NCBI GenBank assembly: GCA_951406725.2
Contig: OX597817.1
Span: forward strand, 82,956,001 to 83,020,000
Length of the DNA stretch: 64,000 bases
DNA from: Octopus vulgaris
Lineage: Eukaryota
Direction of reading: 5' to 3'
Shown: positions 13,623 to 54,409 of the stretch, one piece after another
How the letters are laid out: every line of letters begins with the position of its first letter
How positions within the stretch are numbered: the stretch's first letter is position 1
The notes under the pieces: model-generated
The model's database searches: none
Seen by the model: the letters and a program-made list of their open reading frames with translations, nothing else
What the model was told of the DNA's origin: nothing
Translations under genes and position numbers: made by a program

Positions 13623-13660
<38 letters not shown>

Positions 13661-13743
13661 GGTCCCGGGTTGATTCGGGGTTAACCACAGTAAATAAGGT
13701 ACTCAATACATAGCAGAGTAAAATTAATTTATTATATAGAAGG

Positions 13744-13794
13744 AGCTTCTACAGGACTAGAACTGTTTCATTCAAGAGAAATCTTCAGGAAGCT
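13744..13794 (-). ncRNA. Type-I hammerhead motif
   Basis: Minus: agcttc-CTGAAGA-tTTC tctt GAAt-GAAA-CAG..CTG-TA-gaagct. Confidence 0.75.
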
Positions 13795-14395
13795 AGTTAA
13801 CAAGAATTGTATTGGCATTTATACATTTAGGCAGGTTTAAAGGGGTGTTGGTGGGGGACTTTTTGGGGGTAGGCATAGCGCAAAATATCATACTTGGGGG
13901 TGTGGTCAGGGAGTCAGTGTTAAATTAGATAGAGGAATAAATAAAAAAAAAAAAAATATATATATAAAAAAATATATATATAGAAAAAATGGGGGAGTAG
14001 AGTGTTAGGTAAATAAGGAGATTCTCACTTATACCTATGCACATATGTATACATATATACACACACATACAAACATATATACATATACATACACACATAC
14101 ATACACACACATATATATACATATATATACACTTACACATACATATACATATCTACACATACACATATATGTATACATACACACACTCACATGCATACAC
14201 GTATACACACATGTATATATACACACACGACCACACATACATATACACACAGAAAAATATATATACACATACACACACATACTCACATACACGCATACAC
14301 ACACATATCCACACACACACATGCACACACAGCACACTAGTCCCTATATACACATATATACACATACACACATATATACATACACACACATACAT

Positions 14396-14435
<40 letters not shown>

Positions 14436-14846
14436 GTGTACCTATGCATACCTACACATACACACATATATATATATACACATACAAATACAGACCCATT
14501 CCCTAATTTTAATTTTATTATCTTCGTTTATTACTTTTGTTATCTTTGGCCGCTTGGTCACAAACATCTTGGCTATGACAGCCAGTCCATATATCTGTCT
14601 ACTGGAAAACAAGCACTCATTCACTCACGCACACTCTTTAGCACGTACACTCACTCATTCGTACACTCATACACATACACGCACGCACGCGTTATATTCA
14701 TACATACATACATCTACATACATTCACGTATATACACATACGTACGCGTACCTACAGATTCATGTCTACACTCTTAGAAGGCTAGTCTATACATATACAC
14801 CAATAAATATAAATTCACACACATACATATACACCTACATACAAAT

Positions 14847-14889
<43 letters not shown>

Positions 14890-15085
14890 CATATATATAC
14901 ACATATATATATATATATATACACATATATACACACATACACACATATACATATATATACACACATACACATACATACATATACACACATACACATACAT
15001 ACGTATACATACATACATACATCCATACATCCATACATACATACATTTATACACATACACACACCCAGATACATACATATATATA

Positions 15086-15132
<47 letters not shown>

Positions 15133-15134
<2 letters not shown>

Positions 15135-15303
15135 CACAAGGGACCAAAGCCATCCGAACATGGCTAGGGACAGGGCAGGGCGGTGGGGGTGTCACTGTTG
15201 CACCTAGCCCCAGGCGAACATCGACGGGGCCAAATGCAACAGTAACACCCCACCACCCCGCCCCGTCCCCAGCCACACTCAGATGGCCCCAGTCCCCTAT
15301 GTT
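15133..15303 (-). other. GC-rich ~78-bp hairpin, G·U-only mismatches on the minus strand
   Basis: Arms 15133-15211 and 15226-15303; 18 mismatches plus 1 bulge by hand alignment. Confidence 0.9.
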
Positions 15304-15347
15304 GTCGAGCAGTTACTGTCTATATCTCTTTTAGAGAATTATTATTG

Positions 15348-15401
<54 letters not shown>

Positions 15402-15780
15402 TCATACACACACATACATATACATACATACATATACAAATATACGCACACACATACATACATACTCATATACACATACACGCACATACACATGTACATG
15501 CGTACCCATACACACACACACACACGCGCGCATCCATATATAGACATAAGTACACACATGCGTAAAAGTATACATATATCTATGCTTACACATACACACA
15601 CACACACGCGCGCCTCCTTATATTCATACTTACATGCATACTCAAAAAATAAGTAAATAGTAAAATATATATACGCGCAGTTATTCATACATGCATACTC
15701 AAAAAATAAATAATAAATATTAATTATATGTACGTGCAGTTACCTATTATATAGACGGATACATACATATAAATAAACTT

Positions 15781-15823
<43 letters not shown>

Positions 15824-16122
15824 CATATATACACATATATATACATATACATATATACACATATATATATACACACACACATACACATATATATATATAC
15901 ATACTTACACACATGTACAAATATATACACACATAGATAACTCTACGTACCTACATATACATAAACACACGAGCGTACGCGTATATGTACATATACACAT
16001 ACACATACACACGCATATATATACATACATACATACACATACACACATATATATACACACACACATACACACATATATACACACACACACATATACACAT
16101 ATATATATATATATATATATAC

Positions 16123-16176
<54 letters not shown>

Positions 16177-16700
16177 ACACATATACATGTGTGCAAACAT
16201 ACATACATACTCATACAAGCACACACACTTACATTTACATATATACACACACTTACACACATATATACATACACATATACATACATACATACATACATAC
16301 ATATATGCATACATACACACACACATATATATATATACATACATACACATACACATACCTATACATATATATACACACATATATATACACATGCACATAC
16401 TTATATCGCTACATACTCGCATATACATATATATATATATATATATATACATATACACACACATACATATACCTATATACATGTATATATACACTTACAT
16501 ATATATACACATCTACAATTTGTATCTACACTCACATACATGCACATACACATAACTCTACATACCTACATATACATCGACATACTCGCGTACACTCATA
16601 TATATACACATATATACATATACACACACACATACATATACATATACATATATATATACATAAATATATACATATATAATACACATATACACACACATAC

Positions 16701-16769
<69 letters not shown>

Positions 16770-16911
16770 CATACATACATACACATATACATACATGTAC
16801 ATATATATATACACACACATATATATATACACACACATACATATATCAACAATTGAGGGTAAAGTTAATTAGTTATTAATCAATTTCACCAAGTATTCAG
16901 TATGTAATATG

Positions 16912-17158: not shown

Positions 17159-17205
<47 letters not shown>

Positions 17206-17280
17206 ATATATATATCTTACATATTAAAACTGAAAATATCTGTGTGAGTGTGTGTGTGTATATATATGTATGTATATATA

Positions 17281-17998
17281 GGATGAGTTCCTGGATCTTA
17301 AGAACTTTCCGGTCCAGAGAACAAGGTGTCATCATACCACTTTCTTCCTCCTTTGTACGGCCACACCTTGAATACTGCTGCCCACTGTGGTCTCCTCACA
17401 CAAGACAAAACATCTCCAGAATTGAGTCACCCCAGAGGGCTCTCACTAAGCAAATTGAAGGCATGGCTGCTCTCGATTATTGGGATCGCCTTAAAGCCTT
17501 GAAACTTTACTCCCTCCAGCGTCGCCGTGAGCGGTACATCATTTGTACGATGTGGAAAATATACCGCCAACTTTGCCCAAACGACCTAAACATTAGCTTC
17601 AAGGTTCATCCAAGACTTGGACCACGGGCTATACGTCCACTGCCAAATTCAAGATCACAACATACAAGTACACTGCAACATAATTTCTTTTCCTCAACAG
17701 GCCCTGCCCTATTTAACATTGTCCCGAGGGAGATCAAAGAGGAAAAGGATCCCGTCAACTTTAAACAGAGTCTGGATAGATTCCTTCAAAGAATACCAGA
17801 TAAGCCACCCATAATTGGATACAACTCACCCAACAAGAACTCACCACTTGAACAAAACTGGATACAACTCACCCAACAAGAACCCACTACTTGAACAAAA
17901 CTTGACTTAAACAGGATTCGAATAATCCTATCAGGTGGTGCTATTAAGTTAGACATGGCCTGGACCAATCTCTGGTCGAAACATATCTAAGTTTTCTA

Positions 17999-18104: not shown

Positions 18105-18143
<39 letters not shown>

Positions 18144-18145
<2 letters not shown>

Positions 18146-18425
18146 TTATTATATAGAAGGAGCTTCTACAGGACTAGTACTGTTTCATTCAAGAGAAATC
18201 TTCAGGAAGCTATTTAACAAGAATTGTATTAGCATTTATACATTTAGGCAGGTTTAAAGGAGTGGTGGTGGGGGACTTTTTTGGGGTAGGCATAGCGCAA
18301 AATATCATACTTGGGGAGTGGTCAAGGAGTCAGTGGTAAGTTAGATGAAAGAATAGATAAATAAAAAAATAGATAAATAAAAAAATAAAAAAATAAAAAA
18401 ATAAAAAAATAAAAAAATATATATA

Positions 18426-18473
<48 letters not shown>

Positions 18474-18932
18474 AAAATAATAAAATAATAAAAAAATAAA
18501 AAAATAATAAAATAATAAAATAATAAAATAATAAAATAATAATATATGTATATATATATATATGTATATAATATATGTATAATAATATATGTATATATAT
18601 ATATATGTATATATATGTATATATATGTATATATATATATATATATATATGAGTGCGTGTGTGTATGTATGCATATATGTATGTATGCATGTATATGTGT
18701 ATGTATATATATGTGTGTAAGTGTGTGCATATATGTATTTGTAAGTATGTGTGCGCGTATGAGTATGTATGTATGCTTGCACACGTGTATATATATATGT
18801 GTGTGTGTGTATATATATGGATGCGCGTGCGTGTGTGCACGTGTATGGGTACGCATGTATATGTGTATGTGCGTGTATGCGTATACGTGTATGTATGTAT
18901 GTGTGTGCGTAGATTTGTATATGTATGTGTGA

Positions 18933-18964
<32 letters not shown>

Positions 18965-19151
18965 GCATATATATAGATGGGTGTGTGTATGCGTATAAAT
19001 GCATGTAAGTATGGATGTATGGATGTATGTATGTATGTATACGTATGTATGTGTGTATGTGTGTATGTATATATATGTGTGTGTATATATGTTTGTGTAT
19101 GTATATATATGTGTATGTACGTGTGTGTATATGTATGTGTGTAGGTGTATG

Positions 19152-19196
<45 letters not shown>

Positions 19197-19646
19197 AGGT
19201 ATGTATCTGTCTTTAGGTGTAGATATGTGTGTGTGTGTATGTATGTGGGTATATATATATATATATATATGTATATTTATTGGTGTATATGTATAGACTA
19301 GCCTCCTAAAGTGTAGACACGAATCTGTAGGTACGAGTACGTATGTGTATATACGTGAACGTATGTAGATGTTTGTATGTATGAATATAACGCGTGTGTA
19401 CGTGTATGTGTATGAGTGGGTGAATGTACGTGCTAATGAGTGTGCGTGCGGGAATGAGTACTTGCCTTCTAGTAGACAGACAAATGGACAGGCAGCCACT
19501 GCCAGGATTCTTAGCCCTAGCGATCAAAGATAACAAAAGTAATAAATGAAGATAATAAAATTAAAATTAGGGAATGGGCCTGTATTGGATTGTATATATA
19601 TATATGTATATGTAAATTTGTATGTATGTATGTGTGTATGTGTAGG

Positions 19647-19693
<47 letters not shown>

Positions 19694-20241
19694 ATATATA
19701 TGTGTATGTGTGTATGTGTGTGTAGATACGTATACATGTGTGTATAGGTATAAGTGAGAATCTCCTTATTTACCTATAACTCTATCCCCCTTTTTTTATA
19801 TATATATTTTTTTATATATATATTTTATATATATATTTTTTTTATATATATTTTTTATATTTTTTATTTTTTTATTCTTTTATTTTATCTTTTTATTTTT
19901 CATTTTTATTTTATTTTTTTATTTTTTTATTTTTTTATTTATCTATTTTTTTATTTATCTATTCTTTCATCTAACTTACCACTGACTCCTTGACCACTCC
20001 CCCAAGTATGATATTTTGCGCTATGCCTACCCCAAAAAAGTCCCCCACCTCCACTCCTTTAAACCTGCCTAAATGTATAAATGCTAATACAATTCTTGTT
20101 AAATAGCTTCCTGAAGATTTCTCTTGAATGAAACAGTACTAGTCCTGTAGAAGCTCCTTCTATATAATAAATTAATTTTACTCTGCTATGTATTGAGTAC
20201 CTTACTTACTGTGGTTAACCCCGAATCAACCCGGGACCTAC
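18144..20241 (+). mobile_element. Non-autonomous hammerhead-bearing element (copy B) with inverted 5' repeat and 3' tail
   Basis: 18144-~18420 is the reverse complement of ~19900-20172; 20173-20241 is an unpaired extension; hammerheads at 18161-18211 (-) and 20105-20155 (+). Confidence 0.82.
20105..20155 (+). ncRNA. Type-I hammerhead motif
   Basis: agcttc-CTGAAGA-tTTCtcttGAAt-GAAA-CAGtactagtcCTG-TA-gaagct; 6-bp helix I, GUA triplet; helix II opens with a T-T mismatch. Confidence 0.78.
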
Positions 20242-20280
20242 ACATATATATATATATATATATATATATCTAATATATAT

Positions 20281-54003: not shown

Positions 54004-54009
<6 letters not shown>

Positions 54010-54409
54010 CTATAAAATGAATATTGATATTTATATGTGTATTCGTTTGTATATGTATGTATATTCTAGGATCATAATCGTATATATACATATCCCAGAG
54101 CTCTACATATATCTATTTATATATTATATACATATACATATTGAGAGAGACAGAGAGAAAGAGACAGACAGGCAGACATATAGCTAAATATATACATACA
54201 TATATATATATATGTATGTATATATTTAGCTATATGTCTGCCTGTCTGTCTCTTTCTCTCTGTCTCTCTCAATATGTATATGTATATAATATATAAATAG
54301 ATATATGTAGAGCTCTGGGATATGTATATATACGATTATGATCCTAGAATATACATACATATACAAACGAATACACATATAAATATCAATATTCATTTTA
54401 TAGATATGT
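54004..54409. repeat. 406-bp spacerless palindrome (inverted duplication)
   Basis: Symmetry axis 54206/54207 inside (TA)n; no mismatch seen by eye. Confidence 0.93.

Follow-up and report, generated by a model that had tools for sequence, protein, structure and literature searches.

A probable record of RNA editing in a hairpin nested in a Penelope-like element of Octopus vulgaris

How does a chromosomal hairpin come to carry eighteen mismatches of a single polarity? The question is raised by a 64,000-nt stretch of the Octopus vulgaris genome (GCA_951406725.2, contig OX597817.1, positions 82,956,001 to 83,020,000; hereafter the window), in which a first, sequence-only reading described a ~78-bp inverted repeat with one bulge and 18 mismatches, all of them G·U on the minus strand. 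It offered two explanations, namely that a hyper-edited RNA hairpin had been reverse-transcribed into the genome or that the locus is a structured RNA under strand-specific selection. The comparisons described below support the former and speak against the latter. They also confirm the described hairpin. What that reading had missed is the membership of the hairpin in a 360-nt hammerhead-like family and the identity of the repeat around it (its 'copy A') as the 3' end of a young Penelope-like element (PLE).

The hairpin, its family and the direction of its changes

Alignment of the arms (15133-15211 / 15226-15303) reproduces the described structure, with 60 Watson-Crick pairs, 18 mismatches and one bulge at 15185, where a run of G is 5 nt long in one arm and 4 nt in the other. 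The mismatches read 10 A·C and 8 C·A on the plus strand and G·U throughout on the minus strand. The fold energy is -153.0 kcal/mol for the minus and -101.3 for the plus strand, and the folding z for 15133-15350 is -15.6 versus -10.6.

Table 1. Coordinates of the features discussed (window positions, except for the second hairpin)
Feature	Position	Strand	Basis
Host: 5'-truncated 3' end of a young PLE with a long, microsatellite-rich 3' UTR	13657..16909	-	
Host PLE minimal type I hammerhead, canonical CUGAAGA / GAAA core	13744..13794	-	sequence reading
(TA)n target, left flank	15093..15132		
RNA stem 3' arm, monomer positions 79 to 1, family sense	15133..15211	-	arm alignment
A>G changes in the 3' arm (n = 8)	15137, 15145, 15155, 15159, 15181, 15193, 15203, 15204	-	
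Loop, monomer positions ~93-80, single adenosine unaltered	15212..15225	-	
Inversion junction of the hairpin	~15226		
RNA stem 5' arm, monomer positions 1-79, family antisense	15226..15303	-	
A>G changes in the 5' arm (n = 10)	15231, 15259, 15264, 15270, 15276, 15278, 15288, 15289, 15290, 15297	-	
Unpaired 46-nt PLE-type tail, monomer positions 315-360, 0/20 adenosines altered	15304..15349	-	
(TA)n target, right flank	15350..15398		
'Copy B': diverged inverted host-family insertion, hairpin missing	18140..20243		
Second hairpin	G000:C2:181524521-181524633, mirror 181526824-181526936 (L182 4505-4720, 6740-6954)		

The family to which the hairpin belongs consists of non-coding 360-nt units. A genome search gave at least 91 matches (best 40 scored of 2,432 candidates), and a tolerant pattern search found 3,144 monomer matches. 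Family insertions lie in (TA)n and mostly comprise two inverted arms, each a partial monomer or a tandem run of monomers (arrays of up to at least 15 units per arm), whose end lies either at monomer position 1 or, through an extension of 46 nt, at position 315. The window copy is composed of an arm of positions 1-94, an inverted arm of positions 79-1 and the tail; the ribozyme part is missing. In the full monomer, a minimal type I hammerhead-like fold can be drawn on the strand with the outward-facing 3' end; stems I-III, GAAA and GUC are present, and stem I shows a compensatory change. Its core departs from the canonical form at C3 or U4 in all 53 regular-expression matches (CCGACGA in 40, TTGACGA in 11 and TTGACAA in 2), and the youngest, most amplified lineages carry CCGACGA or TTGACGA; the canonical CTGACGA was found in one locus (L058). 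Rfam searches of three family loci returned sub-threshold miRNA-like hits and no ribozyme or hammerhead match. Within the long tandem arrays (L118, L119, L117 and L058), private variants are common to all units in both orientations, as would be expected of rolling-circle copying from one template, and in sequencing run X1, possibly one of RNA, a 361-nt contig of depth 24 corresponds to one unedited family monomer. The family appears to work like a non-LTR retrozyme, with a putative hammerhead whose core is mostly non-canonical.

Some relatives share further traits with the window copy. Fragments of related TA-targeting elements (L004, ~1330-1480) resemble it in the tail and also contain its short GCCAT..ATGGC stem-loop, which suggests that this stem-loop may be a shared recognition signal. 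The inversion junction of the window copy, 94|79, recurs only in L005/L032 (G000:C11:6026785-6027003), a hairpin of a different subfamily with the same architecture and no edits, be it through a hotspot or by coincidence. An unedited sister from the lineage of the window copy (L105) has a different junction, and a search for the exact junction pattern, which a copy with an indel would escape, turned up no unedited parent from that lineage; this counts against the editing route.

These relatives give the changes a direction. With L014, a natural monomer of the window copy's subfamily, as the reference for polarity, one arm of the window copy shows 8 T>C changes and the opposite arm 10 A>G changes, which is A>G on the minus strand throughout. 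In a tally of 343 monomer hits, the most frequent letter is A or T in each of the 18 columns. At 13 of these, the window letter is present in at most 3 of ~220-250 other monomer hits, and at the other five (monomer positions 23, 28, 45, 49 and 61) it occurs in other subfamilies as a minority variant. Among 65 control hairpins of the family, three (L029, L048 and L144) were dropped since their BLAST matches ran through the junction; in the remaining 62, the arms differ at 51 of 5,638 positions (16 plus-strand wobbles, 12 minus-strand wobbles and 23 transversions), as compared to 18 of 78 in the window hairpin (p = 3e-19). Since the relatives carry A or T where the window copy is altered, and their arms pair almost perfectly, the 18 changes are all private to it and A>G on the minus strand. 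Furthermore, private variants are common to both arms within single insertions (L105, L107 and L035), so that the arms start out alike and the asymmetry postdates the formation of the hairpin.

The sequence-only reading had expected an A/T consensus with copy-specific A>G changes if editing was the cause, and C>T changes or mismatches of both polarities if it was not. The alignment of copies yields the former pattern: the relatives hold A/T, and the direction is A>G. The one change that looks opposite, G15304, is common to 221 matches (220 besides the window copy) and is, on these counts, an inherited lineage variant, which leaves the window copy with a single polarity. C>T deamination and DNA editing by APOBEC (G>A) were rejected as explanations, as both run in the wrong direction.

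The comparison also bears on selection for a structured RNA in which G·U pairs are tolerated. The minus strand does fold into an almost unbroken stem, as this explanation would have it, but its G·U pairs occur in this one copy only, whereas the relatives are Watson-Crick paired with balanced polarity. Moreover, the window copy is truncated and very young, and an Rfam search of the hairpin gave sub-threshold, generic miRNA-like hits only, none at gathering level. We regard such selection as exceedingly improbable.

The altered adenosines

On the minus strand, 18 of the 38 stem adenosines are altered, compared to 0 of 21 in tail and loop (p = 7e-5), while the 38 stem thymines are all intact. The alterations depend on the neighbouring bases. 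On the 5' side, the altered fraction is 8/12 after U, 6/9 after A, 4/13 after C and 0/4 after G; on the 3' side, it is 8/10 before G, 5/10 before U, 4/9 before A and 1/9 before C. This agrees with the hand count of the first reading, in which no altered site had a 5' G (0/18), 8/18 had a 3' G and the four adenosines in GA context were all unaltered. By Fisher's test the 3'-G enrichment is significant (p = 0.027) and the 5'-G depletion alone is not (p = 0.11). Permutation gives p = 0.003 for each side and 4.5e-5 for a combined ordinal 5'+3' score, which we set from the known ADAR motif, depleted in 5' G and enriched in 3' G (PMC4365171). The neighbour rates in the hairpin match this motif.

Both arms are altered on the same chromosomal strand, which implies that the substrate was the hairpin as one RNA and not an ordinary transcript of the family; if both arms had been primed from ordinary family sense RNA, they would be expected to show opposite chromosomal polarities.

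Error-prone synthesis by polymerase eta has a WA>WG bias, and A or T is the 5' neighbour at 14 of the 18 sites, which fits a change at the DNA level. Another such process would be deamination by ADAR of the DNA in an RNA:DNA hybrid, where it can edit dA in vitro (PMC12925331). However, the changes stop at the stem ends, spare tail and loop and do not continue into the surrounding PLE, where 1,521 compared columns hold 5 private changes and 0 minus-strand A>G. Their density of 47% and the 3'-G preference likewise speak against synthesis errors or hybrid editing. The confinement to an intramolecular duplex largely refutes a DNA-level process, which we consider highly improbable. Whatever the route into the genome, the changes very probably stem from ADAR-edited RNA.

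The Penelope-like host, a second hairpin and the route into DNA

The repeat that surrounds the hairpin is found in many nearly identical copies; its segment 14495-14812 is 99-100% identical to the 39 other scored loci. Longer copies run into a single ORF in which reverse transcriptase motifs are followed by a Cys-rich linker and, at the end, a GIY-YIG-like part (motif reading, P0001), whose atlas neighbours at 0.96-0.98 (RVT_1, HTH_animal and GIY-YIG) provide a lead in the same direction; a Pfam scan gave one sub-threshold, unrelated hit and a PDB sequence search nothing useful. A PLE tail, inverted 5'-truncated copies and a hammerhead near the terminus are all present in the host family, which may be of the Neptune type, given the Cys-rich linker. 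Since the hammerhead and the ORF of the longer copies both lie on the strand that is minus in the window, the edited strand is the sense strand of the PLE and presumably the transcribed one.

All 24 near-identical host copies that were fetched are without the block at the corresponding site. As the sequence-only reading had stated, the block is also missing from the matching position of copy B, but the latter is diverged by ~6-11% (two unique segments compared) and appears to be an insertion of separate origin; because it is not an identical twin, the 24 near-identical copies are the better control. Between copies A and B, wobbles are skewed 15:5; editing of copy A was rejected as the reason, as this copy matches at least 33 siblings almost exactly. 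Between the two copies lies the 3' fragment of a LINE ORF (17290-17990, plus strand; frame 17160-17894), presumably CR1/L2-like, and elsewhere in the window a perfect 203-bp palindrome without spacer (54004-54409) is found beside a (TA)n run.

The PLE 3' UTR (window positions 13950-16850 and 18540-19750) extends over kilobases in which TA and TG dinucleotides are intermingled, the TG being on the sense strand, and the GC skew of the two host copies in these intervals is -0.51 and +0.48. One idea is that this mixture derives from old editing of (UA)n hairpins. Across host copies (L171-L190 and L196-L275), private sense-strand changes comprise 28 A>G and 52 T>C (p = 0.005), and thus no general A>G excess, which counts against the editing route; the T>C excess possibly reflects an error bias of the reverse transcriptase.

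Probes for multi-site A>G at the host terminus revealed a second case, a mini-hairpin that belongs to the host family and sits in a (TA)n of a host PLE 3' UTR. The events number only two and both come from probes made for the A>G pattern, which counts against the editing route. Its five mismatches are all sense-strand A>G, in the contexts UAG, AAG, UAU, UAC and UAG, its tail is clean, and its letters are present in 0-1 of 165 other host starts. In both hairpins, the changes are therefore A>G on a single strand when polarised against relatives (18/18 and 5/5). Only 5 of ~47 stem adenosines are altered in the second, which counts against it. One inverted host insertion carries the edited mini-hairpin in each of its arms, without any difference between them, and these arms have two otherwise private variants in common; the identical edits imply that the edited hairpin was already present at insertion. 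A scan of 361 inverted pairs, not all of them independent, gave balanced wobble polarities (554 versus 522), from which the window hairpin, the second hairpin and a weak 4:1 case (L043) stood out, and nothing else. Three further candidates, L070 with three one-polarity mismatches, L206 with a junction loop and L225, were inspected and rejected as edited. A short host-family fragment without partner arm (L195, G000:C5:82236980) carries 3 T>C and 2 transversions.

Could the assembly be at fault, either through a consensus error at the hairpin or through polishing with RNA reads that wrote edits into the sequence? The edited sequence is without read support: three WGS runs of ~0.7x each placed 0 reads on it, which counts as no test, and among the listed runs none matches more than 0.13 of its words and no RNA run contains it. 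The difference in homopolymer length between the arms would fit a consensus error, and RNA polishing would likewise track the PLE sense strand and could affect both arms of the second case. Yet other hairpins of the family, nested ones included, were assembled with near-perfect arms, and the window copy is the single multi-site edited one among 3,144 monomers; probes at positions 16-51 in both orientations, which miss diverged subfamilies, found no other. In addition, a mid-stem UAG (15165) is unaltered and a CAC (15181) is altered, which would resemble one molecule more than a majority vote. We consider an artefact unlikely.

A further alternative accepts the editing of RNA by ADAR but lets the product enter DNA without the host: the hairpin transcript may have been reinserted alone, or cDNA of the local transcript may have overwritten an unedited copy that was already there. 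Read on the minus strand, the hairpin RNA has the family 3' end followed by (TA)n, and the same (TA)n site has taken independent insertions in two sibling copies (L157 and L163), as would fit this alternative; conversion in place would account for the missing parent. Neither version predicts the nesting of the hairpin in one PLE family, given that 0/65 control hairpins lie inside the host PLE and the edited one does. A solo reinsertion does not predict the sense-strand polarity in 2/2 cases either, and the second hairpin occupies both arms of one insertion. We find entry without the host quite improbable. By comparison, the nested hairpins of host copies L178 and L244 have perfect or almost perfect stems, as expected of insertion after the host had landed.

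We consider it likely, instead, that ADAR edited the hairpin within the RNA of the PLE, and that the PLE reverse transcriptase copied it, together with its host, into the present site. Insertions of the family arise in (TA)n, with perfect inverted arms and the 46-nt tail, as the observed copies show. One of them may have landed in the (TA)n of the parent PLE 3' UTR, so that the PLE transcript would have carried the hairpin as a 78-bp perfect duplex. ADAR would then have deaminated about half of the duplex adenosines and spared the loop, the tail and the unpaired flanks. During reverse transcription inosine is taken for G, and the composite RNA would have been retrotransposed into the window site as a 5'-truncated PLE copy. 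The hairpin itself is probably functionless, a record of one edited RNA molecule.

Related systems and implications

The closest parallel comes from avian retroviruses, in whose DNA ADAR hyper-editing was preserved (Hajjar & Linial 1995; Felder 1994; both as cited in PMC12925331); there, an inverted repeat in retroelement RNA, with ~50% A to G, was also recovered as DNA. Our case, by contrast, concerns a natural chromosomal PLE copy of an invertebrate-type genome, in which the duplex is provided by another mobile element nested within the first, and two events occurred in one PLE family. The APOBEC-mediated DNA editing of LTR retroelements resembles our case as a clustered, strand-biased hypermutation in one direction, polarised against relatives (Knisbacher & Levanon, PMC4866542). 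It is described there as vertebrate-specific and absent from 19 invertebrates, in a main text with 0 occurrences of ADAR, and involves G>A on the cDNA, whereas the window hairpin shows A>G, limited to a duplex and in ADAR context.

As for the elements themselves, metazoan non-LTR retrozymes are described as tandem, non-coding units of ~170-400 nt (PMC7229834), which, like the 360-nt family, carry a type I hammerhead-like motif each and a PLE-like mobilisation (Cervera & de la Peña, PMC7229834; bioRxiv 10.64898/2026.07.22.740005). In contrast to these, the core of the 360-nt family is mostly non-canonical, its insertions are typically inverted with a 46-nt tail, and the window copy is without ribozyme. 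The host shares with EN+ PLEs of the Neptune type the reverse transcriptase, Cys-rich linker, C-terminal GIY-YIG and a hammerhead near the end (Craig et al., PMC8557442), as well as the tail, inverted 5'-truncated structures and AT-rich targets (PMC8557442; Frangieh et al., PMC11167929). According to the latter study, PLE insertion involves the extension of both target strands, and two reverse transcription start sites bound the tail (PMC11167929). The host differs in its 3' UTR, which exceeds 3 kb, is TA/CA-rich and collects nested insertions.

The chain from editing to reverse transcription is thus known from retroviral proviruses, while its occurrence in natural PLE copies is apparently new: in a search of mostly open literature, we found no report of ADAR footprints in natural genomic PLE or retrozyme copies. 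The window hairpin is a real feature of the assembly and very likely an ADAR record. The feedback of A-to-I editing into DNA has been debated through the statistical overlap of edited sites with A/G polymorphisms (PMC10209271). A dense cluster that is restricted by strand and structure, with ~3,000 unedited relatives as controls, provides a concrete, PCR-testable case, and the one in the window also names the enzyme route, the PLE reverse transcriptase.

Such edited insertions look rare, and there is an even chance, in our estimate, that they represent a recurrent route, in which PLE 3' UTRs capture hairpins, ADAR edits the germ-line RNA and the PLE reverse transcriptase writes it into heritable DNA. 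If the preferred account is true, a simple genome-wide screen would be to look for hairpins with one wobble polarity, and the edits could serve as single-molecule barcodes with which to trace how inverted PLE insertions originate; the identical edits in both arms of the second case would mean that a single RNA molecule is the template for both inverted arms of a PLE. It would also mean that ADAR acts on retroelement RNA in cells that pass their DNA on.
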